Source of the DNA: Patescibacteria group bacterium UBA926
GTDB taxonomy: Bacteria; Patescibacteriota; Doudnabacteria; UBA920
Direction of reading: 5' to 3'
Assembly (NCBI GenBank): GCA_002293685.1
Contig: DBDS01000007.1
Coordinates: 40,140-104,139 of the forward strand
Length of the DNA stretch: 64,000 nt
The notes below the pieces were generated by a model. The model was not told where the DNA came from, did not search any database, and saw only the letters and a program-made list of their open reading frames with translations. Below, in pieces: positions 10,821-31,724 of the stretch (its first letter is position 1; the number at the start of each line of letters is the position of its first letter). The position numbers and the translations under genes were made by a program.

Positions 10821-10942
10821 AGTAATCAAGTCAGAAAAGTTTTCATTCTCTTTTGGTCTACTCGAAATTGCCGTTTTGGAAAACTAATCCTTGACCAATA
10901 AAACCAAACTAAAAACCCCATTCTGGGGAATGAGGTTGTTAG

Positions 10943-10961
10943 TGGTAGCGCTACGGGGAAT
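10943..10961 (-). repeat. 19 bp direct repeat of the tRNA-Glu 3' end. Candidate att site remnant and left boundary of the island.
   Basis: TGGTAGCGCTACGGGGAAT is identical to 31811-31829, the 3'-terminal 19 nt of the tRNA on the minus strand. The flanks diverge immediately afterwards. Confidence 0.55.
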
Positions 10962-11289
10962 TCCGCCTCACCGCGCTGCTGCGCGGCTCGTTGTTCGGGG
11001 TTGCGAGAAACTGCTCCCAGCAGTTTCTCGATCGCTCGGTTTCAGTTTTCTCTGCTAGATACAACTTCACCTCGCTTCAACCCGTTCGATTCCTCTATAC
11101 CAATACCATAATAAAAACCCGAAGCAAGTTCGAGTTTTTATTATGGTAGTGATACCGCGTCTAGAACTGCCCAGATGGGGGAATTACAAGGGGTTTCAAG
11201 CATTCCCAGTATGGACGCTGCGACGCATCCGAGTCTGCCGTATAAATGCTACAAATGAGACATTATAAAAGCTATATAAGACTGTCTCA

Positions 11290-13503
11290 TTATATAATTT
11301 TTAAGCATTCGAAGAATTCGACAAGTATTGCTTTGATATCACCATCTGAAGCGGTTGAAGTGTTGTCATGAAGTTCAATTTGAAGGCTATCACATAATCT
11401 AATAAATCTTGTTTTCTTCGCAGGATCCCCATCGAATACCTTTATAGAAAATGTACGAACACTTTTTCTTTGAGCCAATTCGTCTTTTATATCGAAGTAG
11501 TACTTCCTTTTAAATATATTTTCTAAAATTATACGACAGTCATCTGCATATTTTTGATCAAAGCTTTCGTTAGCTAAAATATTTTGGACACGTTTTAGTC
11601 GATCAATAATATCATCATCTGGAAAATCTTGATCAATATCACAATATTCTATTTCGCTTTGTTTTGTGCCATCCGATATTTTTGAAGAGATTTTTAAAGT
11701 CTGAGCATTAGATAGTTCGGGGAGTTTTTTAAAATCCTTATAGAATTCTTTTTCATGAGTCAGAATAATCTTTTGTTTAGGTGTGTCAGTTCCATTAGAA
11801 ACGTCTGCTATAAAATGAATGGTTTTCATTTTTCTTTCTCTGTCAAAGCTTGAAAGAGGATCATCGAAAACTACAATCTTATTTTTTAGATCTTGATCAT
11901 GGCTTAAGATGGATAAGAAGAATGCAAAGGCTAAAAGACGCTTATCGCTTTCACTGAATGTGTTATGAAAGGATGGGGAATCTTCAGTGTCACCGTCTAT
12001 TGTGATTGAATGTTCGTTGAAGAATCGAATGGCGAAGATTCTTTCTTTTTGGTTACGCAATTTCTTTAGGGGTACAAAATCGATTATTTCGAAATCTGCA
12101 CCAAGTTGGGAACAAAATGAATTAATAGTACCTTTATGTTCACTAAAGATTGTAGTTGAGTATTCTTCCAGTTCTTTTCTTTGGAGATCGCGCTTGTAAC
12201 GCAACTCATTAGCTGTTTTCTCTATTTGTGCGCTACTGTCAAAGAATTCTACCCACTCTGGTTCGAATCTCTTTTTAATATTTTCTAAATCAATCTTTTC
12301 GTCCCGAAGTTGTTTTATATCTATGGCGCCAGGCTCCGCTACACTTGCTTGCAAGTTTTTTATGTCTCCTAAAATTCTACTGAATTCGCTCTTGATGAGA
12401 ACAAAGTCAGGATTTTCTGCGCAATTCACAATCAAATTTAAGTTTTTTTGTTTAGCCTCAACTATAAGGTCGAATCTTTTTTTAGCAGAGACTATCTCTT
12501 GTTTTTGGGTTTCGGTGATATTTAAGGTGACGCCAATTTGTTTAAACTCAGTAATAGTTTTATCCAGCACACTTTCTATATCCCATCTAAGAAAGCTATT
12601 ACCCGTAGTTTCTATCTCATTTCTTAATGCTTCATATTCTTCACGAAATAGCTCCTTGTATGATTTAATTAAATCTTGTGCTTCGCTTAAAAGCGCTTGT
12701 CCACAAAAAACACAATTTGTTGCATTCTCACCCAATAGCTCAACTCCTTCTTTCAAAAATTGTTGCGAGTGGAATTTGTCTTTCCAGTGTTTTGATATAT
12801 GCTCTTCTACTGCATCTTGTTTAGCATCAAAAGTCTTATCAAAAGTAGTTTCATAAGAGATGAAGTCGGTATTAAAAACATTGTTCCTGACTAAGTTGTT
12901 AAATTGAACCTGTTCGTCGAAAAATTTGATTTTTTCGTCTAAGACTTTAATATGTTCATCAATATCAGGGTCGTTCTCAACAGCACCCAATTTCTTAAAA
13001 TCTGCTCCTGGAAAGCTTCTAGAAAATTCTGTAGTTTTAGCACTTTTCTGTGCGGTTAATTTATCAGATTCTATCTGTAGATCGTTGATCTGTTTCTGAA
13101 GCAATTTACCTCGTTCGCCAATAATAATTTCATTTAAGTTTTTTTGATGCTCAAAAGAAATCTGTTCGCCATCAAATATATTTTCAGCTATAAATTTAGT
13201 ATCAAAAATATGGATGTCTCTGTTCTGATTATTCCATTTTCCATTTTGAAAAAGATATGAGGTTTTTATTCCCCCATCTTCAAAGTCTAAAGATATTTTT
13301 TGATCATCCGTTGATCCAAAACTTCTCCTGCTGATGACTAAATTTCCGACCCCAGTCTTGAGAGAGCGGAGGATGGCAGTAAAGGTGCTTTTGCCACAAG
13401 TATTGTGAGCAAATATCAAAGTATTTATACCAAACTCCTGACCAGGCGGATGACTGTCTCTAAATTTCCCTACATTTTTTATGTTTTGAATTCTTTTAAG
13501 CAT
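11290..13503 (-). CDS. RloC-like ABC-type ATPase with a long coiled-coil insert carrying a CxxC zinc hook. Candidate anticodon-nuclease or abortive-infection defence protein.
   Basis: Walker A (NTLIFAHNTCGKSTF) near the N-terminus. A coiled-coil region of about 500 aa contains CVFCGQ, a Rad50-like hook. Walker B/D-loop (KIVVFDDPLSSFD) lies near residue 545, followed by a C-terminal domain of about 190 aa. This architecture matches the RloC/PrrC family. Confidence 0.45.
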   Translation of the reverse strand: MLKRIQNIKNVGKFRDSHPPGQEFGINTLIFAHNTCGKSTFTAILRSLKTGVGNLVISRRSFGSTDDQKISLDFEDGGIKTSYLFQNGKWNNQNRDIHIFDTKFIAENIFDGEQISFEHQKNLNEIIIGERGKLLQKQINDLQIESDKLTAQKSAKTTEFSRSFPGADFKKLGAVENDPDIDEHIKVLDEKIKFFDEQVQFNNLVRNNVFNTDFISYETTFDKTFDAKQDAVEEHISKHWKDKFHSQQFLKEGVELLGENATNCVFCGQALLSEAQDLIKSYKELFREEYEALRNEIETTGNSFLRWDIESVLDKTITEFKQIGVTLNITETQKQEIVSAKKRFDLIVEAKQKNLNLIVNCAENPDFVLIKSEFSRILGDIKNLQASVAEPGAIDIKQLRDEKIDLENIKKRFEPEWVEFFDSSAQIEKTANELRYKRDLQRKELEEYSTTIFSEHKGTINSFCSQLGADFEIIDFVPLKKLRNQKERIFAIRFFNEHSITIDGDTEDSPSFHNTFSESDKRLLAFAFFLSILSHDQDLKNKIVVFDDPLSSFDRERKMKTIHFIADVSNGTDTPKQKIILTHEKEFYKDFKKLPELSNAQTLKISSKISDGTKQSEIEYCDIDQDFPDDDIIDRLKRVQNILANESFDQKYADDCRIILENIFKRKYYFDIKDELAQRKSVRTFSIKVFDGDPAKKTRFIRLCDSLQIELHDNTSTASDGDIKAILVEFFECLKII

Positions 13504-13598
13504 TGGTCAGGGTTAAATTAAGCTTATTTTAGCACTTTTATGTACTTCTGAATAGATTACATAAGTTCAAATAATAAGGTAAAATAAAGACAATATAT

Positions 13599-14204
13599 AT
13601 GAACAAAAAAGTAAAAAAGCCAGAATTTACATATCCTTTTAACGATAAAGAGCATGAAGAATCTCTTAAGTTTTTAGATATTCGTAGAATGAATATGGTA
13701 AGTCAACGTGGTTCTAAAGTCGAACTAACGGAAACCATGTATCACAGTAGTAAATATCACAAACTTGAGCTGAAAGAAACAATTTACATAAAGAAAAGTG
13801 AAAGTAAGAATTTAGGCGAAATTTTATATCTCCGTCCCCATAATCAAGTAAAGGGTCAAAAATACTTAGTGTTTGCAGTAAATATCAAGAAGGATGGTAA
13901 AGTATATTTTGCTCGAGAAACAATTCTTGAGAAAGTGGCAGAGTTCTCTAATGACCAATGGATGATCATAAAGACGTTTTATGAATCAAAAAACGTTTCG
14001 CTAAAGGACGCACTAGAAATTATTAGCCGCCATACAGGTGGGGTATATAATACCACCGGATCGCTGAGGTCAACTATTAATAAGATCAACCGTAAAATAA
14101 AGAGTGCATTCAAGTTAACAGAAAACGATAAAATGATAAGTGGTGAACAAGGCAGTGGTTACTCTTTTAATTCACATATCCGCTTAAATGTAATTGAAGA
14201 TTAA
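13599..14204 (+). CDS. Hypothetical protein, divergently transcribed from the ATPase gene.
   Basis: 201 aa. No recognisable motif. Possible C-terminal DNA-binding region. Confidence 0.45.
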   Translation: MNKKVKKPEFTYPFNDKEHEESLKFLDIRRMNMVSQRGSKVELTETMYHSSKYHKLELKETIYIKKSESKNLGEILYLRPHNQVKGQKYLVFAVNIKKDGKVYFARETILEKVAEFSNDQWMIIKTFYESKNVSLKDALEIISRHTGGVYNTTGSLRSTINKINRKIKSAFKLTENDKMISGEQGSGYSFNSHIRLNVIED

Positions 14205-14359
14205 TACTAATTAGGTGTAGTGGATAAATCTTCTTAAAAGCCTTATTTTAAAGGCTTTTTTGTTTGTTTTAATTTTTCTGGTTGCACGTTTCAATAACGT
14301 GCTTTTTGGTTATGCTGAATTTGATAAAGCTATCTACATTATTAATTAAAATAAATTTT

Positions 14360-15637
14360 ATGAGCAAGAAAATAATTTGGCATACGGAAAAGAGAGTAGT
14401 GAAAGACCTTATTCGATACGAGAAAAACCCGCGTAAACTTTCGTCCTCACAACTTGAAGGCTTGAAACGCAGTCTTAAGAAATTTGATGTTGCAGAGTTA
14501 CCATGTATTAACACTGACGGAACATTAGTAGTAGGGAATCAGCGCGTAATGGTGCTATCGCTTCTTGGGCGGGAAAATGAAGAAATAGAAGTGAGAGTCC
14601 CAAACAGATTACTCTCGGAAGCAGAATTTAAGGACTACCTTCTTACATCGAATCGCAGTGGCGGCACGTTTGACTACGAAAAACTTGCTGCGGATTTTGA
14701 TCTAGAAGAACTATTAACAGCAGGTTTTGATTCGTTAGATTTAAGTAATATCTTTGACGATAATCTGGAAATCAACGATGACGAATTCGATGAAGTCCGT
14801 GAGCTTGAGAAAGCAAAAACTACTGATATAAAGATTGGTAACATGTTTAGGCTAGGTAGGCATTTCTTAATCTGTGGAGATGCCCTTGATCCTAATACTG
14901 TTAAAAAACTCATGGGAGATGCTCGTGCCGACCTTATCGACACAGATTTGCCATACAATATAGGACTCTCCTATGATCGTGGTGTAAGTAACCACCGAAG
15001 CTTCGGCGGTTCTACAGACGATAGTAAACCTGACGAGCAGTACAAACAGTTCGTTAAAACGATTATGCAAAATTCATTATCTGTTGCTAAGAAAGATGCG
15101 CATTGCGCATGGTGGTGCGATGAACGATATGTCTATATTTTTCAGCAAATCTATAAAGAGCTTGGTATTGATTCCAAACGGCTTCTTATCTGGGTAAAGA
15201 ATAATCAATCGGTTACTCCTAAGAACGCATTTAATAAGATTACAGAGTTTGCAGTGTATGGCACTATCGGCAAGCCTTGGCTGAATGACAAAGTAAGAAA
15301 CTTGCACGAGGTTCAAAACAAAGAAATAACTACCGGCAATCGAGTTATCGAAGACATTCTTGATCTTATAAATATCTGGTTGGTTAAAAGAATACCAGGT
15401 TCAGAGATGGATCACCCAACAGAAAAAAGTCCGACTATTCACGAAAAGATTCTGCGCCGTTGTACTCGTCCTGGAGACATTGTTTTAGATATGACTGCAG
15501 GATCTGGAAGTATACTATCGGCTTGTGAGCAATTAAAACGAACTGCTTACGTGTGCGATTATGAACCTATTTTCTGTCAGTTAATAATTAATAGATTTAA
15601 ACAAATATCAAATGAAAAAGTTATCAAGCTCAATTAA
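14360..15637 (+). CDS. ParB-like nuclease domain fused to an N6-adenine/N4-cytosine DNA methyltransferase (phage-type).
   Basis: N-terminal ParB/Srx box (EKNPRKLSSSQLEGLKRSLKKF). Methyltransferase motif IV variant DLPYN and motif I (DMTAGSGS). The first Met at 14360 is the preferred start. Confidence 0.7.
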   Translation: MSKKIIWHTEKRVVKDLIRYEKNPRKLSSSQLEGLKRSLKKFDVAELPCINTDGTLVVGNQRVMVLSLLGRENEEIEVRVPNRLLSEAEFKDYLLTSNRSGGTFDYEKLAADFDLEELLTAGFDSLDLSNIFDDNLEINDDEFDEVRELEKAKTTDIKIGNMFRLGRHFLICGDALDPNTVKKLMGDARADLIDTDLPYNIGLSYDRGVSNHRSFGGSTDDSKPDEQYKQFVKTIMQNSLSVAKKDAHCAWWCDERYVYIFQQIYKELGIDSKRLLIWVKNNQSVTPKNAFNKITEFAVYGTIGKPWLNDKVRNLHEVQNKEITTGNRVIEDILDLINIWLVKRIPGSEMDHPTEKSPTIHEKILRRCTRPGDIVLDMTAGSGSILSACEQLKRTAYVCDYEPIFCQLIINRFKQISNEKVIKLN

Positions 15638-16370
15638 ACTTGGAAACACTTTTCGCTTAGGGTCGCACTTGCTGTTTTGCGGCGATTCTCGAAATAAAGA
15701 AATGGTTGCAAAGCTTATTGGCAAATATAAAATCAAAGCAGTTATCACTGATCCTCCCTACGGTGTTGCAGTCACGGAAAGCAAGGAAAAATTCCAAGCC
15801 CTCTCTAAAAATAAACCCATTCTAAACGATCACTTGCAGAGTGATGAAGAGTACCAAGTCTTTAGCCGTGAATGGATTGAAGTTATAACCCCATACCTTG
15901 AACTTAAAAATAGCTTCTACATTTTTAACTCAGATAAAATGGTTTTTGCTTTACGCGAAGGTATGTTAAACGCAGGTATTAAACTTGCGCAGCTTCTAGT
16001 CTGGGTAAAAACCCAAGCAGTTATTGGAAGAATGGATTATGCACCTCAGCATGAATTAATTGCATATGGATGGCTTGGTGTGCATGAGTTTCTTAAATCT
16101 AAAGATAAAAGTGTACTAGTATGTCCGAAACCAAACAAAAGTAATATGCATCCTTCTACTAAACCTTTAGATTTGATCCGTAGACTTATCCTTAATAGCA
16201 CTCGCATTGGCGATATAGTCTTTGACGGCTTTCTTGGGAGTGGCACTACCTTGCTTGCCTGCGAACAGACAAAGCGAATCTGTATCGGTGTAGAAATGGA
16301 TACCGAGTATTGCCAAACTATAATAGATAGGTTTGAAAAATTAACTGGCGTAAAAGCAGAAAAGTTATGA
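15612..16370 (+). CDS. N6-adenine/N4-cytosine DNA methyltransferase, beta class.
   Basis: Motif IV DPPY (VITDPPYGVAV) precedes motif I FLGSGTT (DGFLGSGTTLLACEQ). Confidence 0.8.
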   Translation: MKKLSSSIKLGNTFRLGSHLLFCGDSRNKEMVAKLIGKYKIKAVITDPPYGVAVTESKEKFQALSKNKPILNDHLQSDEEYQVFSREWIEVITPYLELKNSFYIFNSDKMVFALREGMLNAGIKLAQLLVWVKTQAVIGRMDYAPQHELIAYGWLGVHEFLKSKDKSVLVCPKPNKSNMHPSTKPLDLIRRLILNSTRIGDIVFDGFLGSGTTLLACEQTKRICIGVEMDTEYCQTIIDRFEKLTGVKAEKL

Positions 16371-16804
16371 GTAGGAAAGACACTATTAAGCAGCGGCAGA
16401 ACAAACTCAAAGAAGCATTTCTGACTCAGCTTAAACGTTCACCGACCATTGAAACATCTTGTCAGAAAATCGGCATTGCTAGAGCCACAGTCTATCGCTG
16501 GATAACTGCCAGTGAAAAATTTGAGCGGCAAGTTGATAAGGCTCTACATGAAGGTCGAACGTTTATGTCAGACATTGCCGAAAATCAACTCTTCTCCCTT
16601 ATTAGTGATAAGAAAATTGAAGCAATTAGGCTTTTCCTTTCTACACATAATCCTCGCTATAGTAATAAGCTTGAATTATCCGGATCAGTCGCAGCTAAAG
16701 ATGAAAAGCTCACCAAAGAACAGAAGAAATTGATTCGCGCTGCTCTCAAACTTTCCTCTCTAAACAAACATGAAAACAAAAGTAGAAAAAATAAACAGCC
16801 TTGA
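16367..16804 (+). CDS. Small HTH protein, putative terminase small subunit.
   Basis: HTH (IGIARATVYRWI). 145 aa. Immediately upstream of, and overlapping, the TerL gene. Confidence 0.4.
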   Translation: MSRKDTIKQRQNKLKEAFLTQLKRSPTIETSCQKIGIARATVYRWITASEKFERQVDKALHEGRTFMSDIAENQLFSLISDKKIEAIRLFLSTHNPRYSNKLELSGSVAAKDEKLTKEQKKLIRAALKLSSLNKHENKSRKNKQP

Positions 16805-18233
16805 GTCAGTATTAGAAAAAATCTTGGTTGATAAAACTGTTCGTACTAATACTGTTACGAAAAGTCTTGAATACTTTTTCCCTATTTACTTTCATCGGTA
16901 TATGGAATACGAGACTGCGCCTTTTCATGAAGATATGTTTCGTATTCTTGAAGATGACCAGATTAAACTGGCAGTTATTGTGGCCTTTAGGGGATCAGCT
17001 AAATCAACTATCATTACTACTGCCTATGTCTTGTGGTCTATTTTAGGTGTGCAGCAACGGAAGTTCATCGTCATTTGCGGACAGACCGAGCAAAAGGCTC
17101 GCCAGTATTTGTTAAACATAAAAAATCAACTACTGCACAATGAACTACTACGAAAAGATCTTGGTCCCTTTGAAGAAGAAAAGAATAACTTAGGTAATGC
17201 AACAGCTTTAATTATCAAAAGATTGAATGTCAAAATAATGATTAGTTCGGTTGAGCAAAGCATTCGCGGAATGAGACATGATGAGCATCGCCCTGACCTT
17301 ATTATTTTAGATGACATTGAAGACATTAATTCAGTGAAGACCCGCGAAGGCAGAGATAAGGCATTTAACTGGCTCACTGGCGAAGTGATTCCTGCGGGTA
17401 GCAAACGCACTCGCATCATTGCAGTTGGTAATTTGTTGCATGAAGATTCAGTCTTAAAGAGGTTGCAGAAAAAAATTGAAGGCGGTGAAATGGAGCGAAT
17501 GCGGGGCGTGTATCGAGAATATCCTATTGTCGATGCCAAAGGAAATGCACTCTGGCCAGGAAAATATCCGACTGCTGAAGATGTAGAAATGGAGCGAGAG
17601 AAAACTATGAACGAAGTGGCATGGTATAGAGAATATATGCTGCAGATTATTACGACCGATGAACAAATAGTAATACCTGAATGGATTCACTTTTATGACA
17701 ACATGCCAGCTGATGGACTACGCAGTATTTGTATCGGTGTAGATCTTGCTGTCAGTGAAAAGAGTTCAGCTGACTGTACTGCCATAGTTGTTGGGTATGT
17801 ATTCGGTACAGGTAAAAACTTGAAGATATATATTCAAGAACACCCGTATAATAAGCGGTCGTCGTTTCCCGTTCATGCAGAATATATTAAAGGACTAGTA
17901 GCTAGAGAAAAAATGATGCATTCTCGAGTGAAGTTATATATTGAAGATGTAGGGTATCAAAAAGCTCTCATTCAATATTTTGAAAGCAAGAAATACGATG
18001 TTGAAGGCGTGCCAACCGGCAGAACAGACAAAGCAGCAAGACTTCGCCTAACTACTCCACTACTTAAAGATGCTAGAGTCTTATTCCCTGAAAAAGGTGC
18101 CGAGGAGTTAATTGATCAGCTACTAGGTTTTGGGAAAGAAAAACATGATGACCTGGCAGATGCATTTGCCATATTAGCTTTGAAGATTATTGAGAATAAT
18201 CCTATCCAATCTACAGGGATTCTTATTGGGTAA
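16770..18233 (+). CDS. Phage terminase large subunit (ATPase plus RNaseH-like nuclease).
   Basis: Walker A-like FRGSAKST. Walker B LIILDDIED. C-terminal nuclease acidic residues (DLADAF). 487 aa. Confidence 0.7.
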   Translation: MKTKVEKINSLESVLEKILVDKTVRTNTVTKSLEYFFPIYFHRYMEYETAPFHEDMFRILEDDQIKLAVIVAFRGSAKSTIITTAYVLWSILGVQQRKFIVICGQTEQKARQYLLNIKNQLLHNELLRKDLGPFEEEKNNLGNATALIIKRLNVKIMISSVEQSIRGMRHDEHRPDLIILDDIEDINSVKTREGRDKAFNWLTGEVIPAGSKRTRIIAVGNLLHEDSVLKRLQKKIEGGEMERMRGVYREYPIVDAKGNALWPGKYPTAEDVEMEREKTMNEVAWYREYMLQIITTDEQIVIPEWIHFYDNMPADGLRSICIGVDLAVSEKSSADCTAIVVGYVFGTGKNLKIYIQEHPYNKRSSFPVHAEYIKGLVAREKMMHSRVKLYIEDVGYQKALIQYFESKKYDVEGVPTGRTDKAARLRLTTPLLKDARVLFPEKGAEELIDQLLGFGKEKHDDLADAFAILALKIIENNPIQSTGILIG

Positions 18234-18555
18234 ATATTTTAAATTTTAGCTGGACTTTATAAGAGTTCAGCGGTACTGTTGTCCTTATGAATAATTAGAC
18301 ACAGAAAGGAGCTTGTAGAGAAAAACGTTGATTCTTAAGGAGAAAATCCGTATAATAATAGTAACAATTTATTAAGTAGCCTAAACCGTTTTTATTGGCG
18401 GCATGGTGAAAAGCCCCATGGAAAATACTGAACCCTGCGTTCAGCGTCCTTCCATGGGCCATATCGGGAAACTGATATGGAAGCTTCGGCTTCAGCTGGC
18501 GTGGGGCTTTGTGTTATACAAAGCGTGAAGCCAGCAGAAAGACCCATGGAAAACA

Positions 18556-19500
18556 ATGAAACAATGTCCTTATTGCGCTGAAGAGGTGCAAGAAGCAGCG
18601 ATTGTCTGCAAACACTGCAAGAGAAGTTTATCAACCGCACCTTCTCCTGTAGTAAACCCTAATGTGCAAACCACTGGTACGGATTGGCTAAATATATTTA
18701 AATGGATTGGTATTGTCATACTGATAATCATGGCAATCCCTTTGTGGTTCATAAGTATCCCCACTCTTATTGGTTGGTACTTATTCAAGAAGAAGAAAAA
18801 CAAATTCAGCAAACGCACAAATATACTTATTACCGTAGGGGCGTTTGTAATATTTATTGTATTGTTCAGTGTTAATGAACACTCTAATAAACCACCAGAA
18901 ATAACTATTATAGAGCCGCAAGAACAATCTAGCGTACAAGCTGAGTCAGTAATCGTTAAAGGTACTGTTAACCCTGTAGATAGCACAATTAGCGTTAATG
19001 GGATTATTATCCCAATGGATAATGGAAACTTTACCTATGAGCTAGCTCTGAATGACGAAAGCAATACCGTCAATTTTATAGCAGCGCGAGAAGATAAAAC
19101 TACAGAAAAAACATTTGTAGTAAACCGGGTATTTACACCTGAAGAAATAGCAGCAAGAGAAGCTAAAAAACAGGCAGAGCTTGAAGCACAGAAGAAAGCT
19201 CAGGCAGAGGCTGAGGCTAAAGCTGTTGCCGAACAAGCTGCATATGACAGAAGTAAAGCAGGTCAGCTTTGCAAGCAACATATTGATTGGACTAAAGAAG
19301 ATTGCCAAAGAGTTGCTGACCGAAAAATTTGGGTTGGCATGACGTATGACATGCTAATTGCCTCTTACGGTGGTAAGCCAAGAAGTGCTAACCCTTCAAA
19401 CTACGGAGGCAAAACTCAGTGGCAATGGTGTTTTGATACCCTGAGCCCATCATGTTTTTACGACAACAATGATGATGGCATAATTGATAGCTATAACTAA
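18556..19500 (+). CDS. Zinc-ribbon membrane protein with an extracytoplasmic Ig-like region, a coiled coil and a Cys-containing C-terminal domain.
   Basis: N-terminal CPYC...CKHC zinc ribbon, two transmembrane helices, coiled coil EAKKQAELEAQKKAQAEAEAK, four C-terminal Cys. Confidence 0.5.
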   Translation: MKQCPYCAEEVQEAAIVCKHCKRSLSTAPSPVVNPNVQTTGTDWLNIFKWIGIVILIIMAIPLWFISIPTLIGWYLFKKKKNKFSKRTNILITVGAFVIFIVLFSVNEHSNKPPEITIIEPQEQSSVQAESVIVKGTVNPVDSTISVNGIIIPMDNGNFTYELALNDESNTVNFIAAREDKTTEKTFVVNRVFTPEEIAAREAKKQAELEAQKKAQAEAEAKAVAEQAAYDRSKAGQLCKQHIDWTKEDCQRVADRKIWVGMTYDMLIASYGGKPRSANPSNYGGKTQWQWCFDTLSPSCFYDNNDDGIIDSYN

Positions 19501-19515
19501 ACATAATTTAAAGAA

Positions 19516-19797
19516 ATGGAAAATACAGAAAAGCAGTGTCCGTACTGCGCTGAAGTAATTAAAAAGGAAGCTGTCATTTGCAAACACTGCGGTCATGATT
19601 TACAGACTGGACAACCATCAGATTCGCTGAGGTTAGAAAATCGACCTGTGGTAGAAATAGTTAAACCTGCTAAAGCCGCGAGTACTATTAGTGATGGGGT
19701 AAAACTAGGTTGTGGGATGTTTATAATATTACCGATTATTATTGTAGTGATAATTATTGTGATTATAGCTATAGCCATGGCAGGAGCAGGAGCTTAA
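19516..19797 (+). CDS. Small zinc-ribbon membrane protein, paralog of the N-terminus of the preceding gene.
   Basis: CPYCAEVIKKEAVICKHCGHDL followed by one transmembrane helix rich in Ile/Val. Confidence 0.45.
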   Translation: MENTEKQCPYCAEVIKKEAVICKHCGHDLQTGQPSDSLRLENRPVVEIVKPAKAASTISDGVKLGCGMFIILPIIIVVIIIVIIAIAMAGAGA

Positions 19798-19927
19798 TTA
19801 AACCAATTATTATCATTTACAAAATTAGTATGCATAAGTTTTAGATCATTTGGGGTTATAAGTTATCTACTTTAGGTCTAGACTTACTTTAACCCATCCG
19901 GTACTGTGTCCCTGAAAGGAAAAAGTT

Positions 19928-21280
19928 ATGGAAAATGAAGCACTCAAAGAGGCTTTAGCTAGTACAATAGCCAGTAGGCAAATAGAGGCAATACCAGCGC
20001 AGCCAGTAAAGTATTGCCTCTACGCCAGAAAATCAACTGAGCAAGAAGAAAGACAAGTATTGTCCATAGACTCTCAGATTAAAGAGATGCTCGCCGCCGC
20101 AGAACGAGATAGCCTTAACATAGTAGAGATTAGAAAAGAAAGCCATTCTGCTAAAGATTCAGGCCAGCGACCTGTGTTCAATGGGTTGATAACAGACATC
20201 CGTGAAAAGAAGTTCAACGGTATTCTGACATGGGCACCAGATCGGTTAAGTAGAAACGCTGGCGATCTGGGTAGCTTAGTAGATTTAATGGATCAAAAGC
20301 TGCTGGAAGAAATTCGCACTAATGGCCAGCGGTTTAGTAATAACCCAAATGAAAAGTTCTTGCTAATGATTCTATGCAGTCAAGCTAAGCTTGAGAATGA
20401 CAATAAGAGCTTGAATGTAAAAAGGGGATTACGAGCAAAAGCTGAATTAGGATTGTGGGCAAACCCTGCACCAACTGGATATTTGCATGAAAAGCGGACT
20501 GACAGAAAAGGTTACATCATGCTTGACCCAAAGCGTGCGCCGATCATCAAGAAGATGTTTGAGAAAGTAGCTAATGAACAATATTCTGGCAGAAGATTAT
20601 ATGGTTGGTTAAAAGATGAGATCAAATTCACCACTAAGAATGATAAACCTCTTGCTTTAGGAAATATATACAGAATACTAAAAAACACCATGTACTATGG
20701 TGTTTTTGAATATCCTGTTAATAGCGGTAACTGGTACACGGGTAAACATACACCGATTATCACTCAAGATTTATATTTGAAAGTACAAGAACAGATTAAT
20801 ACTGAGGGCCACAATTATGCTATAAAAGAATTTGCTTTTACAAAGCTTATTACATGCGGGTTATGTGGATCAGGAATTACAGCCATGGAAAAATTGAAGA
20901 AATTGGTGGATGGGACGACGAGTAGATACATATATTACGGCTGTACCCGAAGCAGAGATATTAATTGCAAGGGTGGGTATTTACGAGAGGAAGAATTAAT
21001 AACACAGCTCTCGAAAATTATTGATGAAATGGATATTAATGAACTTGGGATTAAACATCAACTTGAGCAGGAGATTGTAAGGTATGACAGGTTTCAATAT
21101 GGGGTGCTTGGTAAGAAAAAAGAAGCGATGCCTAGTAAGATGGATAATGATGTAGATATTCGCACCTATGCTAAGTATATACTGAAGCAGGGGAGCATCG
21201 TCGAAAAACGAGAACTACTCGGATGTTTGAAAAGTAACGTGGTGCTAACTGATAAGCAAATTAGCTTAAAGAATGTCTAG
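19928..21280 (+). CDS. Large serine recombinase (integrase or resolvase family).
   Basis: N-terminal resolvase catalytic domain (YARKSTEQEE with the catalytic Ser, LSRN), recombinase domain, C-terminal zinc ribbon (CGLCGS...YYGCTRSRDINC) and coiled coil. Confidence 0.85.
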   Translation: MENEALKEALASTIASRQIEAIPAQPVKYCLYARKSTEQEERQVLSIDSQIKEMLAAAERDSLNIVEIRKESHSAKDSGQRPVFNGLITDIREKKFNGILTWAPDRLSRNAGDLGSLVDLMDQKLLEEIRTNGQRFSNNPNEKFLLMILCSQAKLENDNKSLNVKRGLRAKAELGLWANPAPTGYLHEKRTDRKGYIMLDPKRAPIIKKMFEKVANEQYSGRRLYGWLKDEIKFTTKNDKPLALGNIYRILKNTMYYGVFEYPVNSGNWYTGKHTPIITQDLYLKVQEQINTEGHNYAIKEFAFTKLITCGLCGSGITAMEKLKKLVDGTTSRYIYYGCTRSRDINCKGGYLREEELITQLSKIIDEMDINELGIKHQLEQEIVRYDRFQYGVLGKKKEAMPSKMDNDVDIRTYAKYILKQGSIVEKRELLGCLKSNVVLTDKQISLKNV

Positions 21281-21309: not shown

Positions 21310-21864
21310 TTAATTTTGCTCAATTCTCCTGCGTGAGAATTTAAACATTCCGTACCAGGCCGTGGGAGCTAATAGTAATACACTCAGCATTCCAGGGAAA
21401 TAACGGTAAGATTCCGAAGTAAATAACGGAAAAACAAAATGAGCAAGCTCAGTAATTCCCATAGAAGCAAAAAATGTCCACGCTATATAATAACCAAATG
21501 CGTACCCTCGTTTAATCAGGTAAGGTGCTACGAGCCACGCAACAACTGTTAAGATCAGTAGTACGATAAGCGGTATAGAACTAACTTCAGGAACTGGCAC
21601 TCCAGTAATCTTTGAAAGTTCTTCTTGAAACTTCATAACATTTTCCTCCACTCTGTGAATGATAAAAAAGAAGAATGTTAGCCAGTACCAAAATTTAATT
21701 GATTTGAAAGATACTGTATTCGGTGTGAGTAACCATAAGATATATCCGCCTAAGAAACCAGCTAGGAAAATGAGTGCTGTGACTATACCGAAAGAGATGT
21801 ATCCAATTGCAGGAACCGCTAGTGTAAATATGAGAAATAGAATGACTTGTTTTTGTTTCTTCAT
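21310..21864 (-). CDS. HXXEE-domain membrane protein.
   Basis: Motif HRVEE inside a polytopic membrane protein of about 180 aa. Confidence 0.5.
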   Translation of the reverse strand: MKKQKQVILFLIFTLAVPAIGYISFGIVTALIFLAGFLGGYILWLLTPNTVSFKSIKFWYWLTFFFFIIHRVEENVMKFQEELSKITGVPVPEVSSIPLIVLLILTVVAWLVAPYLIKRGYAFGYYIAWTFFASMGITELAHFVFPLFTSESYRYFPGMLSVLLLAPTAWYGMFKFSRRRIEQN

Positions 21865-21966
21865 GACTTGTTTTGTTAACTTAATGATAGCAAACCATTG
21901 AATTTAGTTATAGATGATAAGTCGAAGAAGGTAGAGTTAACTTCAGAAAAATGGTAAAATGACAAT

Positions 21967-22347
21967 ATGCTATTTTTGAAGAATACATTAAGTATTAAAG
22001 GATATATTGCTGTAATTGCTGTAGCAATTTACGCATCTTTAAGTATTTTTGGTCTATATTTCAGTATGAGTAATGGAATTGATATTAATGTAAATGCTTG
22101 TTTTTCTCAAACTGATGCTGGCTGTGATACCGCTATCGATCATATTACCCATTGGCAAGGACTTTTTATCACTACTTCAAATGTGAATCAGATACTTTCC
22201 CTTGAATCCTTTATTGTGTTCGTTGTAATTCCGTTAAGTTTGATGGTTTTACTTATCACTGCACACAAGTTTTATAAAAAAGAACATCTTACCGTAGTAT
22301 CTAACTACTTTATCAGGCATTTGCCCGATCTGCAGCCCCAGCCATAA
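21967..22347 (+). CDS. Hypothetical membrane protein.
   Basis: 126 aa with two transmembrane helices. Confidence 0.35.
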   Translation: MLFLKNTLSIKGYIAVIAVAIYASLSIFGLYFSMSNGIDINVNACFSQTDAGCDTAIDHITHWQGLFITTSNVNQILSLESFIVFVVIPLSLMVLLITAHKFYKKEHLTVVSNYFIRHLPDLQPQP

Positions 22348-22420
22348 ATAATAACCAGACCGTTTAATAGCCTTTTTGCTATGAACGGTTTTTTGCGTTT
22401 ATTATTTAATGTAGAAAGGA

Positions 22421-22687
22421 ATGTTTATGAAATGCCCAAATGATAATAGCGATTTGCAGATGTCAGAGCGACAAGGAGTAGAGATCGATTATTGCCCAGA
22501 ATGCCGTGGAGTGTGGTTAGACAGAGGAGAGCTAGATAAAATCATTGAACGTTTAGAAAATGATTCCAGCTCCCAAAACAGCCCGCCTCAATTTTCACAG
22601 CAACAACCCCAGCACGATAATTATCGAAATGATTATAAGTACTCAAAAAAGAAGAAGACATCTTGGCTTGGAGAAATTTTTGACTAG
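22421..22687 (+). CDS. zf-TFIIB-like zinc-ribbon protein.
   Basis: CPNDNSDL...CPECRGVWLDRGELDKI matches the zf-TFIIB (PF13453) pattern. Confidence 0.5.
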   Translation: MFMKCPNDNSDLQMSERQGVEIDYCPECRGVWLDRGELDKIIERLENDSSSQNSPPQFSQQQPQHDNYRNDYKYSKKKKTSWLGEIFD

Positions 22688-22699
22688 CAAATAGAATCT

Positions 22700-23140
22700 A
22701 TGAAAAAAATATTCACTCTTGTCCAACAGAACATTCTGTACCTAGTCCTTATTCAAGCACTAGTGGCCATGCTCGGCAGCTTGTACTTTAGTAACGTAAT
22801 GAACTTGCCTCCCTGCGTTCTATGCTGGTATCAAAGAATTACCATGTATCCTCTTGTCGCTATATTGGCAGTCGGCATCCTGAAGCGGGACCGCAATGTC
22901 TTACTGTATAGCTTTCCGTTAAGTATCACAGGCCTACTGGTCTCTATTTATCATAACTTGTTGTATTACGGGGTGATCCCCGAGAGCATCGCTCCCTGTA
23001 TGCTTGGTATATCATGTACCACTAGGCAAATTGAGTGGCTCGGTTTTATCACGATTCCTCTAATGGCCTTAACCGCTTTCGTTATTATTAACACATTATT
23101 AATTATTTATTGGAGAACACATTATGAGCAAAGAAGCTAA
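22700..23140 (+). CDS. Disulfide bond formation protein B (BdbC/DsbB family).
   Basis: Four transmembrane helices, CxxC in the first periplasmic loop (CVLCWYQRITMYPL) and a second Cys pair (CMLGISC). Confidence 0.7.
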   Translation: MKKIFTLVQQNILYLVLIQALVAMLGSLYFSNVMNLPPCVLCWYQRITMYPLVAILAVGILKRDRNVLLYSFPLSITGLLVSIYHNLLYYGVIPESIAPCMLGISCTTRQIEWLGFITIPLMALTAFVIINTLLIIYWRTHYEQRS

Positions 23141-23789
23141 AATTTTAATCGGTATAGCTGTAGTTGTTATTGGCGTCGGCATCCTCTTGGCTATGCAGGA
23201 ACCTAAACCTGATCCAACCTTTGACAAGCCTGCAGACGCAGGTCAGCTGGTCCGTGAAGACAGTAATATCAAGGGTGGTAAAGATGCCAAGGTAACAGTG
23301 GTGGAATTCCTGGACTTTGAATGCGAAGCCTGTCGAGCTTCTTATCCTGTAGTAAAACAAGTGCTTGCTGAGTACGGTGACAAGGTCAAATTTGTTCAGC
23401 GCTATTTCCCGCTACCGAACCATAAAAATTCTCAGTCTGCCGCTTTAGCAGCAGCTGCTGCTGGGGAGCAAGGCAAGTTCTGGGAAATGCATGACAAACT
23501 CTTTGAAAACCAAAGTTTATGGACTTACGACAATGCCCAAAAAACTACTGAACTGCAAGCTAAGGAGATGTTTATTAGTTATGCCAAAGAGTTGGGCTTG
23601 AATATTGATCAATTTACACAATCTTTAGAAGAAAAAAAATATCTTAACATCATTCAACGAGACATAGCTGACGCAAACGAACTAGGGGTCAATTCTACTC
23701 CAACATTCTATATTAATGGCACAAAGCAAGCGGGTGGCTTATCGCTTGATAAGTTCAAGGAGAAGATTGATGCTGAGTTGAAAAAATAA
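23124..23789 (+). CDS. DsbA/BdbD-family thiol:disulfide oxidoreductase.
   Basis: Thioredoxin fold with active site FECEACRASYP. N-terminal transmembrane anchor. Overlaps the dsbB stop. Confidence 0.75.
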   Translation: MSKEAKILIGIAVVVIGVGILLAMQEPKPDPTFDKPADAGQLVREDSNIKGGKDAKVTVVEFLDFECEACRASYPVVKQVLAEYGDKVKFVQRYFPLPNHKNSQSAALAAAAAGEQGKFWEMHDKLFENQSLWTYDNAQKTTELQAKEMFISYAKELGLNIDQFTQSLEEKKYLNIIQRDIADANELGVNSTPTFYINGTKQAGGLSLDKFKEKIDAELKK

Positions 23790-23799
23790 AGGCAAATAT

Positions 23800-24261
23800 A
23801 TGTATAAAAAATCAATAGTCTTAGTAACAGCGTTGGTATTTGCGCTCGGTATATTCTTGTATTTTAACCTGAGGTCAGAAAATGTACCCGCACAATTATC
23901 AGACTCACATAAAAAGCCTCAGAATTCCCAATCGAATAACTCCAACTCAAATAAGGATGCAGTAGACAATGATACTGAAACAGGCGAATCACAGCCCAAG
24001 CCAGATGTATCAGAGAAGTTTACTTTAAGCGCTGGCAATATTGGTTCGAAAGATGTAAACGTCAAAGTCGGTCAGCGAGTTGAATTAATATTTGACGCTA
24101 ATTTTGAAGATGAAGTTCGACTTGATGAATATGAGGTGAAAGGAATTTATCTTTTACCATTAAGTGAACATTCGACACAGGTTGTTGCAGATAAGCCAGG
24201 GGAGTTCAGAATATATTTAGTAAAGAGGGATAAGACTATTGGCACGTTAATTGTTAAATAG
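23800..24261 (+). CDS. Hypothetical membrane-anchored beta-sandwich protein.
   Basis: N-terminal transmembrane helix, low-complexity linker (NSQSNNSNSN), C-terminal beta-rich domain. Confidence 0.4.
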   Translation: MYKKSIVLVTALVFALGIFLYFNLRSENVPAQLSDSHKKPQNSQSNNSNSNKDAVDNDTETGESQPKPDVSEKFTLSAGNIGSKDVNVKVGQRVELIFDANFEDEVRLDEYEVKGIYLLPLSEHSTQVVADKPGEFRIYLVKRDKTIGTLIVK

Positions 24262-24270
24262 AAATTATCT

Positions 24271-24552
24271 ATGAAAAAACTTGAATTAATCGAACATCTC
24301 GCAGCCAGGCTTAGCATTACAAATTCTGAATCAGAAAGATTCGTAAATACCTTTATAAACATGATTTATGAAACTTTGCGTGGTGGTGATACGGTAAATA
24401 TTTCTGGCTTTGGACAGTTTAGTGTTTCGCATCGTGATTCGCGAATGGGTGTTCATCCACGTAACCCATCTCAAAAAATTACTATCCCAGAGCTTAATAC
24501 GCCGAAGTTTAAAGCTGGCGAAGCTTTCAAATCCGCTGTTAAGCTGAGGTAA
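24271..24552 (+). CDS. hup: DNA-binding protein HU.
   Basis: MKKLELIEHLA..GFGQFSV..R..RNP.. arm motif. 93 aa. Confidence 0.85.
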   Translation: MKKLELIEHLAARLSITNSESERFVNTFINMIYETLRGGDTVNISGFGQFSVSHRDSRMGVHPRNPSQKITIPELNTPKFKAGEAFKSAVKLR

Positions 24553-24587
24553 GACCCTAACAATTAACTAGAATAAATTAAAAATAT

Positions 24588-25253
24588 ATGGACGATATCA
24601 ATATTCCTGGAAATGAACCTGCTTCTGATGAAACTAAGGAAAGTGCAACAAAGTTTAAATTCAAAAAACCAAGACCGTTGGTAATTGCTATTATAATTGC
24701 AGTGGTTGTCGTTGGATTGGCTTTGTACTTTGCTAAGGGTCTGTTTGTGGCTGCAGTCGTTAATGGCATGCCAATCAGTCGTTGGTCTGTAATTAAAGTA
24801 TTAGAACAACAAGGTGGCAAACAAGCTCTGCAAGGTATTATTGATGAAAAGGTTATTGAAGCCGAACTCGACAAGCAAAAGGTTTCAGTAACTCCTAAAG
24901 AGATTGATGAACAGATAAAGAAAATTGAGGAGCAAGTAACTAGTCAGGGCGGAACATTAGCAGAAGCACTGGCTCAGCAAGGTATGACAGCAGAGAAGTT
25001 GCGAGAACAAATTACTGTTCAAGAAAAGCTTAAAAAATTATTGGCAGATAAAATTGCAGTTTCTGAGACAGATGTAGATGCGTACGTTTCAGAGAGCAAG
25101 ACACCTGTTCCAGAGGGAGTCAGCCCGGAAGACTTTAGAAAACAAATCAGCGAACAATTAAAGCAGCAGAAGTTCCAGAAGGAAGCTCAAGCCTGGATTG
25201 CTGATCTGACAGGGAATGCCAAAATTAAATACTTCGTGAACTACGGAGAATAA
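24588..25253 (+). CDS. Membrane-anchored SurA-N-terminal-like chaperone domain protein.
   Basis: Transmembrane helix followed by a charged helical domain resembling the SurA_N / PpiC-associated chaperone region. Confidence 0.4.
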   Translation: MDDINIPGNEPASDETKESATKFKFKKPRPLVIAIIIAVVVVGLALYFAKGLFVAAVVNGMPISRWSVIKVLEQQGGKQALQGIIDEKVIEAELDKQKVSVTPKEIDEQIKKIEEQVTSQGGTLAEALAQQGMTAEKLREQITVQEKLKKLLADKIAVSETDVDAYVSESKTPVPEGVSPEDFRKQISEQLKQQKFQKEAQAWIADLTGNAKIKYFVNYGE

Positions 25254-25385
25254 ATATGGGCAAAACAATTAACATCCTAATTGTTCTTAGTCTTCTAGCT
25301 TTAGCTCTTTTAGGTTATGCTCTTTTGAGGAACGATAGTAGTACTATCAACACCACTATTAACAAACCGATTAATAATTAATCAT

Positions 25386-27251: not shown

Positions 27252-27273
27252 AAATTTATTAAAGTAGATCATC

Positions 27274-28044
27274 ATGCTGAATCTTTTATATGCAGGGTTG
27301 TTAGGAATAGTTGAAGGCATTACGGAATTTTTACCAATTTCTTCCACAGCTCACTTAATTCTTACAGCTAAACTTTTAAATTTACCTCAGACTGAATATC
27401 TCAAAAGCTTTGAAATTATTATTCAGCTTGGAGCAATTTCTTCAGTGGTGGTGCTGTACTGGAAACAGCTATGGCAATGGGAAGTAATAAAGAGGTTAAT
27501 TGTCGCTTTTATTCCAACAGGAATCATTGGGCTGATTGCATATAAATTTGCTAAGCAGTACCTACTAGGAAATACTTCAGTAGTTTTGTGGACGCTATTA
27601 ATTGGCGGTATTCTTATAATTATCTTTGAGTACCTGTATAAAGAAGGAGAGAGCGGATCCCAGGAAATGGCTACTATTTCGTATAAACAATGTTTAGCGA
27701 TTGGATTATTCCAGTCAGTAGCTATTGTCCCAGGGGTATCTAGATCAGCTGCCACAGTAATTGGCGGACTACTGCTTGGGTTAAATCGCAAGACAATTGT
27801 GGAGTTTTCTTTTTTGCTTGCTGTGCCAACGATGCTCGCCGCGAGCGGCCTTGATTTAATAAAGTCTGCTGATCAATTCTCAAAGGATCAGGTTGGTTTT
27901 TTAGCTGTAGGATTTGTAGTGTCATTTGTCGTTGCATTGCTAAGCATAAAGTTTTTACTTCGATATATTAAGAACCACGATTTTAAAGCTTTTGGAATTT
28001 ACCGCATTGCTATAGCAATTCTACTATGGCTTGGGATGAAATGA
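27274..28044 (+). CDS. uppP: Undecaprenyl-diphosphatase.
   Basis: GIVEGITEFLPISSTAHL signature. Eight transmembrane helices. 256 aa. Confidence 0.85.
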   Translation: MLNLLYAGLLGIVEGITEFLPISSTAHLILTAKLLNLPQTEYLKSFEIIIQLGAISSVVVLYWKQLWQWEVIKRLIVAFIPTGIIGLIAYKFAKQYLLGNTSVVLWTLLIGGILIIIFEYLYKEGESGSQEMATISYKQCLAIGLFQSVAIVPGVSRSAATVIGGLLLGLNRKTIVEFSFLLAVPTMLAASGLDLIKSADQFSKDQVGFLAVGFVVSFVVALLSIKFLLRYIKNHDFKAFGIYRIAIAILLWLGMK

Positions 28045-28142
28045 CATCAATTTTTAGTAAATCATCAAATTTCATATCTGTATAGTAATATTATTATTCG
28101 CGTGAAGAGCGAAACCAACATTAACACAATTAATAAAACCTC

Positions 28143-29657: not shown

Positions 29658-29663
29658 TTTGGT

Positions 29664-30365: not shown

Positions 30366-30736
30366 TAATCAAACACTGAAGGATAAAAATAGATAACCAC
30401 CATACAGAATTCTTACAGGAAATTATCTTGGTTAAATTCCAAATTAAAGAGGGCTTAATCTGGCTAAAGTTATGGTTTTTCCACAAAAAATAGTTGATGG
30501 TAAAATTTGCTTTTGGTAACCTTAAAAAGCATCATAAACAGTTTTAAAAAATAATCTGAATTATTGACCTTGCGCAGATTGCAAGTAAAGGAAACAACAT
30601 TATAGATATTTATAATTCCAAGCACAGGCAGAGTAAAATAGTATTTTTTAGACCTCTGAAATTTCATACCATAATTCCTAAGCAGAAACCAAGTTTATGG
30701 CAATATGCATCAAAATTTTCCAGTAAAATTTTCATT

Positions 30737-31672: not shown

Positions 31673-31724
31673 GGCTCTTAATTTTTAGTTATCATTCTTC
31701 ATATCACGTGAGCTTGAATTAAGA

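Follow-up and report, generated by a model that had tools for sequence, protein, structure and literature searches.

The window analysed here is a 64,000-nt stretch of contig DBDS01000007.1 from Patescibacteria group bacterium UBA926 (assembly GCA_002293685.1, positions 40,140 to 104,139 of the forward strand), and the element in question is a 20.9-kb island at positions 10943–31829 of that window, with a 19-nt direct repeat, derived from the 3′ end of a tRNA-Glu gene, at either boundary. Within the island, four plus-strand open reading frames (ORFs) overlap head to tail across 14360–18233 and encode a ParB-methyltransferase, a second methyltransferase, a protein resembling the terminase small subunit (TerS), and a terminase large subunit (TerL). 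The original prediction had described these genes as co-oriented with overlapping stops and starts, which the ORF map and the Pfam and PHROGs matches bear out; its coordinates, 14360–18233, are right for the core, but the integrated element is larger (10943–31829) and includes a LOOT RNA. Searches used Pfam, PHROGs, PADLOC, and Rfam. The features that delimit and define the element are the following:

10943–10961, no strand assigned: core of the left attachment site (attL), a displaced tRNA-Glu 3′ end (TGGTAGCGCTACGGGGAAT) and exact 19-nt repeat of 31811–31829 (E = 3e-5)
14360–15637, plus strand: ParB-like N-terminus fused to an N6/N4 DNA methyltransferase (DLPY ... AGSGS), from Pfam and PHROGs
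15612–16370, plus strand: stand-alone second methyltransferase of the beta class (DPPY, then FLGSGTT)
16367–16804, plus strand: TerS-like helix-turn-helix (HTH) protein of 145 aa (phBC6A51/HTH_Tnp_1_2 family), from weak profiles, fold, and position
16770–18233, plus strand: TerL, from phrog_38 and motifs
19928–21280, plus strand: large serine recombinase (LSR), presumed integrase/excisase, with Resolvase, Recombinase, and Zn_ribbon_recom domains
31811–31885, minus strand: tRNA-Glu(UUC), whose 3′-terminal 19 nt (31811–31829) form the core of the right attachment site (attR), from ARAGORN, Rfam, and the repeat

The ParB-methyltransferase matches Pfam N6_N4_Mtase (3.6e-24), phrog_498 over residues 34–448 (1.8e-74), and the ParB-like phrog_620 (3.4e-18). 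Its reading frame stays open upstream to a TTG at 14282, and we favour the ATG at 14360 as the start because two terminator-like hairpins (14236–14259 and 14284–14302) lie between this ATG and the preceding gene, which encodes a 201-aa protein, and because members of the family are 424–450 aa long. The second methyltransferase is optional in the family, and is missing from many loci. It is plausible that the two enzymes are orphans directed against restriction, and equally possible that they would regulate cleavage of a packaging (pac) site, by analogy with phage P1, in which adenine methylation gates pac cleavage.

The gene for the TerS-like protein overlaps that of TerL by 35 nt. Its profile matches are weak (phrog_24579, 3e-9; Pfam Sf6_terminase, 0.0058 and below the cut-off; HTH_Tnp_1_2, 27.8 against a cut-off of 27.9 bits), and an AlphaFold (AF2) model built from an alignment of 30 sequences, with a pLDDT of 73, has an N-terminal HTH followed by long helices. 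The top matches of this model to PDB entries in Foldseek are the Sf6 TerS gp1 (probability 0.97, E = 0.13) and the phBC6A51 protein 2AO9, with TM scores of 0.40–0.44. Weak but consistent, these profile and model scores support an assignment as TerS, which is based mainly on the position of the gene 5′ of TerL, and on a member of the same sequence family that precedes TerL and portal genes in a real phage (L151).

For TerL the match to phrog_38 (8e-81) extends over residues 29–479, and Pfam Terminase_6C spans residues 322–466 at a score below its cut-off (17.4 against 22.6 bits; 4.7e-3). The protein combines the two hallmarks of a terminase, an N-terminal ASCE (additional strand, catalytic glutamate) ATPase and a C-terminal RNase H-like nuclease with conserved acidic residues. 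The Walker A (AFRGSAKS) and Walker B (DLIILDD) motifs and the acidic residues Asp325, Glu392, and Asp460/Asp461 are invariant in 26 homologues, and the profile aligns to the Walker A/B regions of T7 gp19 and to the HK97 TerL ATPase domain. The exact sequence is also present on GCA_002343885.1. Unlike the usual setting of a terminase, no portal or head module adjoins TerL, either in the window or in about 130 loci of the family.

Pfam and PHROGs, applied to the island ORFs and to unannotated window ORFs, gave no match to a portal, capsid, tail, or holin gene. Hidden Markov models (HMMs) of portal, protease, and capsid proteins built from the closest real phages gave no match in a six-frame translation of the whole window, nor in about 130 cassette loci with 10-kb flanks. 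The original prediction that no portal, capsid, tail, or lysis genes follow TerL holds for the structural genes, and profile searches for hidden portal or capsid homologues among the island ORFs, which would have pointed to a complete but divergent prophage, found none. The profile matches likewise keep TerL a terminase and do not reassign it to another class of ATPase; the predicted zinc-ribbon proteins and serine integrase after TerL lie at 18556–19797 and 19928–21280; and the statement that no restriction endonuclease is evident agrees with our Pfam and PADLOC searches, which found no restriction enzyme in the window island or in the conserved core, restriction-modification (R-M) genes being present only as variable cargo in other loci. 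Three genes of peptidoglycan-hydrolase type (M23/FG-GAP, C39-like, and LysM-LysM-M23) are located at 28143–31672, at the right end of the island beside the tRNA. They occupy the position of a prophage lysis module, and their endolysin-like matches are at the domain level only.

The tRNA-Glu gene is the only tRNA found in the window by ARAGORN and Rfam. The right-hand copy of the repeat begins at the first base of the tRNA gene (31811), and the tRNA's own minus-strand terminator hairpin is found directly left of attL, at about 10915–10942; unrelated contigs with the same tRNA 3′ half carry a terminator hairpin at the matching position. Because of the 19-nt repeat and the terminator left behind at attL, we conclude that the 3′ end of tRNA-Glu was the site of insertion and that the island spans 10943–31829, an extent that coincides with a stretch of low GC content. 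The corresponding junctions are predicted to read ...CTGCGAGCTGT-TGGTAGCGCTACGGGGAAT-TCCGCCTCACC... for the site on the excised island (attP), and ...GAGGTTGTTAG-TGGTAGCGCTACGGGGAAT-CGAACCCCGAT... for the empty chromosomal site (attB). Alternative island ends at about 14.3 and 21.3 kb were considered and rejected, the inverted and direct repeats there not exceeding chance.

The enzyme acting at the tRNA attachment sites is presumably the LSR (HAG27466.1), and a second recombinase was not found in the window island by Pfam and PHROGs searches of the island ORFs. Its domains score 1.7e-19 (PF00239), 2.2e-12 (PF07508), and 1.7e-6 (PF13408), the catalytic serine is located in a YARKST motif, and Arg34, Ser36, and the cysteine residues are invariant in 27 homologues.

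Homologues of TerL with 45–84% identity are present in at least 309 species-level genomes, and more than 100 TerL cluster representatives have 67–84% identity, the named ones belonging to Patescibacteria, Nomurabacteria, or Parcubacteria. The scan covered one genome per species, and the best 80 of at least 309 related loci were retrieved with 10-kb flanks; nearly all of these 80 are metagenome-assembled genomes (MAGs) of the candidate phyla radiation (CPR), and the few labelled as other taxa may represent binning or labelling errors. Another 79 loci were added from IMG/VR, and overall counts refer to 158 loci. Clustering of ORFs shows that three families travel with TerL in the 80 genome loci, the methyltransferase (74), the serine recombinase (67), and the TerS-like protein (57), with corresponding counts of 128, 106, and 92 in all 158; no further ORF family occurs near TerL in more than 15 loci. 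The order is fixed as ParB-methyltransferase, optional methyltransferase, TerS, TerL, zero to several variable genes, and recombinase. Among 113 occurrences of the recombinase gene, 99 are 3′ of TerL and share its strand, and 47 directly abut it; the flanking genes vary from locus to locus. Two divergent copies of the cassette can share one genome or contig.

Searches anchored on LOOT and on the recombinase retrieved relatives without TerL, consisting of ParB-methyltransferase, TerS, a LOOT-led gene, and recombinase, which account for about 10 of the 67 recombinase-anchored loci. Those with this TerS-only layout, similar to that of Staphylococcus aureus pathogenicity islands (SaPIs), are L243, L250, L254, L304, L308, L315, L322, L324, L328, and L347. 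Other loci carry TerL paralogues in tandem (L066, L068, L070, L074, L081, L083, L107, L109, L112, L113, and L119), which are about 52% identical to one another and retain the Walker A/B, C-motif, and nuclease residues in both copies. Cargo in other loci includes Type I R-M, a Type III-like system, DISARM-like genes, reverse transcriptases, and regulators of the XRE and LexA/CI-like types, and in several loci a LexA/CI-like repressor gene is divergent from the operon.

A neighbour-joining tree built from 163 TerLs groups all 134 capsid-less sequences in one exclusive clade and leaves 24 portal-linked sequences outside. The ratio of non-synonymous to synonymous substitution rates (dN/dS) is 0.01–0.15 for methyltransferase, TerS, TerL, and recombinase in pairs without synonymous saturation, and pairwise distances of TerL correlate with those of the recombinase (r = 0.52), the methyltransferase (0.49), and TerS (0.68), each with p = 0.001. 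The cassette is also mosaic, as in L020 and L023, where the recombinases are 100% identical and the TerLs 87%. L046 and L047, two MAGs from different studies, share 9,680 bp with zero mismatches (6560–16240 in L046) between flanks that are about 77% identical, the result of recent transfer between species. On the left the identity breaks off within the first codons of the ParB-methyltransferase gene; on the right it breaks off at a tRNA-Gln, whose 3′ end is present in L047 as an analogous direct repeat of 14–16 nt. Repeats of a tRNA 3′ end 5′ of the cassette are convincing only in L047 among the remaining loci; those in L070 and L082 measure 10–11 nt and may be due to chance, and the left ends in the other loci may lie beyond the 10-kb flank.

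Of 53 tRNA genes 3′ of TerL, 48 lie on the minus strand and point their 3′ end towards the island; only six tRNAs are found upstream. From the recombinase stop codon to the tRNA the median distance is 1,785 nt; in five loci it is 95–218 nt, with no intervening gene. A GGTC(N)C-like box recurs in the final 30 nt or so of the islands, roughly 20 nt short of the tRNA end, irrespective of whether the target is tRNA-Gln, -Ser, -Glu, -Met, or -Tyr. When the non-coding ends of different loci are compared by blastn, similarity (about 68%) is confined to coding regions. Taken as a whole, the cassette is a conserved, selected, capsid-less gene set of single origin, carried on tRNA-integrated islands that move between CPR species.

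Several further observations concern the island ends. Metagenome contigs of the same population (L002, L007, L008, L091, and L094) stop at about 14322, some 38 nt 5′ of the ParB-methyltransferase ATG, which suggests that the left arm with its AAA_13 and 201-aa protein genes differs between co-existing strains; the same region holds the left breakpoint in L046/L047. At the left end of the island (11083–11170), a 73-nt stretch is 77% similar to the terminator region 3′ of tRNA-Glu in an unrelated contig (L179), and is followed by TGGTAGTGATACCGCG, which resembles another degraded tRNA 3′ end; this segment may be the relic of an earlier insertion, in a tandem accretion. Pyrimidine-rich non-coding stretches are found beside the tRNA (31886–32040), where a spurious-looking ORF overlaps (31719–32039), and beside attL (10962–11080), neither with a match in Rfam. 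Just outside attL, the segment 9300–10940 has a low GC content (0.36–0.39), small unannotated ORFs, and a membrane protein gene, and may be the remnant of another inserted element.

The region between TerL and the recombinase gene contains an RNA and a duplicated sequence motif, both of which recur in the family:

18250–18276, plus strand: copy 1 of a two-box motif (CTRGACTT-N11-12-GCGGTAC), from a motif scan
18378–18493, plus strand: LOOT RNA (Rfam RF03000), 70.2 bits against a gathering score of 46.4
19878–19904, plus strand: copy 2 of the two-box motif, directly 5′ of the recombinase gene and preceded by a AGTTATCTAC box, from a motif scan

The LOOT RNA, whose name may refer to nearby terminase genes, occupies part of the 322-nt gap 3′ of TerL, 63 nt 5′ of the next ORF, and a sigma-70-like promoter (TTGATT-17-TATAAT, 18328–18356) precedes it. 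All nine loci tested have a LOOT RNA above the gathering score (75–94 bits), and a covariance model built from them finds 47 places in cassette loci (L010–L142) and none in true-phage loci. A loose LOOT pattern matched IMG/VR mostly by chance, and five of 80 fetched loci are clearly LOOT (74–111 bits); a sixth candidate (26 bits, E = 2.7e-4) was left out of this count. In most cases the RNA lies 50–98 nt 5′ of an ORF on the same strand, from a very variable set that includes an Ltp-type lipoprotein, DUF4352, tRNA_anti-like OB, bacterial PH-domain, SNase, NucS-like, and Zn-ribbon membrane proteins. These LOOT-led genes are reminiscent of those that temperate phages carry for superinfection exclusion, or as “morons”. 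LOOT is listed in Rfam as a small RNA (sRNA) known from metagenomes only (PMC7779021). RF03000, from the set of Weinberg et al. 2017, is here placed in Patescibacteria islands, 5′ of a variable ORF and on its strand, and this position ahead of unrelated gene families looks like that of a leader acting in cis, not of a free sRNA.

The two-box motif has the general form CTRGACTT-N11-12-GCG(T/G)(C/T)A(T/C), often with GTTACCAAC boxes before it, and has 66 matches in 123 cassette loci compared with one in shuffled sequences; 46 of these are at most 150 nt 5′ of the recombinase gene, to which the spacing is fixed. In the window the two copies are direct, and bracket the LOOT RNA and the two Zn-ribbon genes. 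The motif could be a promoter or operator, on which an alternative sigma factor or an activator from a helper might act, or else a site of recombination. Cargo on the plus strand is flanked by two copies, whereas minus-strand cargo abuts the TerL stop codon without the first copy, and for this reason we favour a promoter or operator over a site of cargo insertion. In L080, an 84-nt direct repeat (11453–11536 and 15004–15087; 81% identical overall, with an identical core of 40 nt) includes the motif and the first recombinase codons, and flanks 3.5 kb of cargo with a P-type ATPase; such a repeat could have been left by cargo that inserted, or by two islands that recombined. A 15-nt string, ATGGAAAAYAMWGAA, appears three times in the window, in the LOOT stem (18418–18432), before the start of the first Zn-ribbon ORF (18546–18560), and at the start of the second (19516–19530), and may be fortuitous, come from duplication of a gene start, or serve to pair with the LOOT stem. 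The segment 18410–18432 is a short duplicated fragment similar to the start of a Zn-ribbon gene.

The remaining genes of the island are cargo, or of uncertain role:

11290–13503, minus strand: AAA_13 ATPase of 737 aa, left-arm cargo and candidate anti-phage gene (Pfam AAA_13, 1e-21; PADLOC PDC-S06, 8.2e-59)
13599–14204, plus strand: 201-aa protein (family f29), directly 5′ of the ParB-methyltransferase, from position
18556–19500, plus strand: 314-aa protein with an N-terminal Zn ribbon and an Ig-like (Glucodextran_B-like) domain, LOOT-led variable cargo, from Pfam
19516–19797, plus strand: 93-aa Zn-ribbon protein, cargo (Zn_ribbon_3, 1e-8)
21310–31672, no strand assigned: right-arm cargo comprising an HXXEE protein, DsbB, DsbA, HU, a SurA_N-like protein, a P-type ATPase, UppP/BacA, and M23/FG-GAP, C39-like, and LysM-M23 peptidases

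The PDC-S06 match of the AAA_13 protein is the only one in the island to a defence library. The 201-aa protein has no Pfam, PHROG, or PADLOC match, occurs at the matching position in L010, L012, L054, and L100, and is possibly a regulator. The family of the 314-aa protein is also found 3′ of LOOT in L051 and L086. The right arm lies within the direct repeats as well as within the low-GC stretch, and its P-type ATPase family is present near the cassette in 14 loci.

On the evidence of sequence comparison, the element appears to be a mobile island of a widespread, apparently undescribed, capsid-less family, probably descended once from a temperate tailed phage. We propose with moderate confidence that it represents a family of phage-satellite-like islands that would redirect the packaging of helper phages with a terminase of their own. 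From its phage ancestry such an island would have kept an LSR for integration and excision at tRNA genes, the packaging front end, the LOOT-led slot, and cargo hotspots that often hold defence systems. It would be integrated at rest, and the methyltransferase, TerS, TerL, and recombinase genes would be expressed upon growth of a related helper phage, or when a repressor is lifted. TerS would then recognise a pac site on the island, and the island TerL (or, in the TerL-less relatives, that of the helper) would dock on helper procapsids and package island DNA, the helpers being phages related to the sister clade of the family. The methyltransferases could modify island DNA, for protection or to gate pac cleavage, and in the next cell the recombinase would insert the island into a tRNA gene. 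Helper dependence, induction, excision, pac recognition, packaging, and the role of the methyltransferases are in this scheme what we infer from the gene content and its distribution. The divergent LexA/CI-like repressors, LOOT-led surface proteins, and R-M and DISARM-like cargo are features typical of temperate phages and satellites.

Among known systems, SaPIs and other phage-inducible chromosomal islands (PICIs) are similar in being small (about 7–21 kb), site-specific islands with an integrase, regulators, a TerS that redirects packaging, and accessory or defence cargo, but no capsid, tail, or lysis genes, and the TerL-less relatives are the members of the family that are most alike them. 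The integrase of PICIs is however a tyrosine recombinase rather than an LSR, and most members of the present family carry TerL and one or two methyltransferases, as well as the LOOT RNA. The PICI core consists of integrase, regulator, primase-replicase, and terS, with no tail, holin, portal, or connector genes; the replication module is a defining component of established PICIs, more than 99.9% of which are found in Proteobacteria and Firmicutes (PMC10085698), whereas the host phylum here is Patescibacteria. With a serine integrase, a TerL, and no primase-replicase, the island falls outside the definition of a PICI. It shares its own TerS and TerL with the capsid-forming PICIs (cfPICIs), which also encode capsid, portal, protease, head-tail adaptor, connector, and HNH proteins (PMC10085698), and is set apart from them since no capsid, portal, or connector genes were found in the Pfam and PHROGs analysis of the window and in the HMM searches.

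The closest TerLs outside the family (35–41% identical) belong to tailed phages in IMG/VR with a phrog_38-type TerL (L143–L145, L148, L151, and L154–L158). These sister phages, which are candidate ancestors or helpers, have the same local order of ParB, methyltransferase, TerS, and TerL, but TerL is followed by portal (phrog_2662/12), protease, and major capsid protein (phrog_10) genes, ParB and methyltransferase are separate genes, and the covariance model finds no LOOT. Among GenBank phages the best TerL match is only 27% identical (Mu-like phages), and no cultured relative was found. The skin element of Bacillus subtilis, a defective prophage excised by a serine recombinase, also combines an LSR with leftover phage genes that include a terminase. 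Elements of the skin type are lineage-specific remnants that keep many structural genes and interrupt a sporulation gene, whereas the family described here is a conserved, selected, and transferable set at tRNA genes.

A number of points weigh against the satellite model. No helper phage was identified for this genome; the search for TerL in metagenomic phage contigs that the original prediction had proposed did find the IMG/VR sister phages. Neither the window island nor the conserved families yielded a primase-replicase (Rep, primase, or helicase); packaging by headful or at cos usually depends on concatemers. The assignment of TerS rests on weak profile and fold scores. The two intact TerL paralogues in tandem in Peregrinibacteria/Peribacteria-type loci are not predicted by the model. 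The recombinase is linked to the tRNA sites by association only, and an identical att core of 19 nt is long for a serine integrase. An empty site was not found: a 33-mer specific for attB had no matches in the metagenome collection, every contig with the exact neighbouring HXXEE protein also has the recombinase, and a pattern search with the tRNA 3′ half retrieved unrelated organisms only. There were no circular or terminally redundant contigs among the fetched loci, and no metagenome search was aimed at the attP circle junction. The left arm (10962–14322) is strain-variable and possibly accreted, so that the true mobile unit may be shorter than the island. The correlations between protein distances, finally, could partly reflect vertical descent.

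It is also conceivable, if unlikely, that the islands serve defence first, and that the terminase genes would sabotage the packaging of infecting phages, by competition for procapsids or by cutting of DNA or concatemers, with transfer as a by-product or by other routes. The PDC-S06 match in the window fits such a role, as do the Type I/III R-M and DISARM-like genes and reverse transcriptases elsewhere and the likeness of LOOT-led genes to superinfection-exclusion proteins, and known satellites do interfere with their helpers. TerS, TerL, and recombinase have no PADLOC match, however, and the linkage to an integrase, the tRNA attachment sites, and the recent inter-species transfer indicate that selection has acted on the unit as a mobile element; an island could moreover both interfere and pirate.

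To our knowledge there is no precedent for a TerL that functions independently of a capsid. We regard it as quite unlikely that TerS and TerL form a capsid-free machine, which could process or translocate DNA for excision, replication, or export (for instance by feeding it to competence or type IV secretion machinery), or act as a methylation-gated nuclease, with the methyltransferases marking self DNA. Such a machine would be in line with the absence of capsid genes over a long evolutionary span, the linkage to a methyltransferase in 74 of 80 genome loci, the lack of a replication module, and the intact tandem TerL paralogues of some lineages. TerL-less variants that keep TerS are better explained by use of a helper's TerL, and the sister clade consists of ordinary phages.

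Very unlikely, in our view, is a split system, in which another part of the genome would supply the capsid, tail, and lysis genes, in the manner of a gene-transfer agent with dispersed loci or of a prophage that has become scattered. The inspection covered 64 kb of this genome and 10-kb flanks elsewhere, and the LysM/M23 peptidoglycan hydrolases at the right end of the island could belong to such a system. About 130 loci are however without any structural gene, and the combination of several divergent cassettes per genome with inter-species movement fits a selfish element rather than a domesticated single-copy system; CPR genomes are also only about 1 Mb in size, and conserved capsid loci would probably have been noticed. 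The original prediction had left the choice between a satellite and a degraded prophage, and the satellite half is strengthened by a gene set that is conserved, selected, and mobile in hundreds of CPR genomes, whereas a decaying remnant, with its structural genes deleted and the rest eroding, is practically untenable in spite of the phage-derived genes adjoining an integrase and the duplicated fragment resembling a Zn-ribbon start at 18410–18432, because the 134 capsid-less TerLs are monophyletic, dN/dS is 0.01–0.15, catalytic motifs are intact, the same gene set is found in differing contexts in hundreds of genomes, and L046 and L047 share 9.68 kb without a mismatch.

Returning to the satellite model, its boldest form would make the family an ancient, capsid-less lineage of single origin defined by terminase and integrase, and the first satellite family of the phylum, as well as the first kind of satellite to hijack helpers by TerS, TerL, and methyltransferase alone; a radical version, at which the tandem TerL paralogues and the lack of a replication module hint, would have a methylation-gated, capsid-free machine, with LOOT as a new cis-regulator of a hypervariable slot for surface or defence genes. 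We consider this proposal unlikely. A literature search (terminase, satellite, Patescibacteria) found no description of satellites or terminase islands, subscription journals being outside its coverage, and according to a 2025 preprint it is open whether viruses of CPR and DPANN hosts have satellites (10.1101/2025.02.15.638363).

If the satellite model is correct, the family would represent a fourth design of capsid piracy, with its own terminase but no capsid and no replicon. The islands are present in IMG/VR, where viral-detection pipelines count them as viruses, and catalogues of CPR “viruses” are inflated as a consequence. The family is also a source of compact serine integrases that target tRNA genes, and it supplies the orphan LOOT RNA with a phylum of hosts and a genetic setting, as well as with a role, as leader for variable genes, that can be tested. 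CPR/Patescibacteria make up a large share of bacterial diversity, and very little is known of their mobile elements; a family present in hundreds of species would, if true, be an important channel through which such reduced genomes exchange genes, moving cargo that includes defence systems, envelope proteins, and ion pumps.

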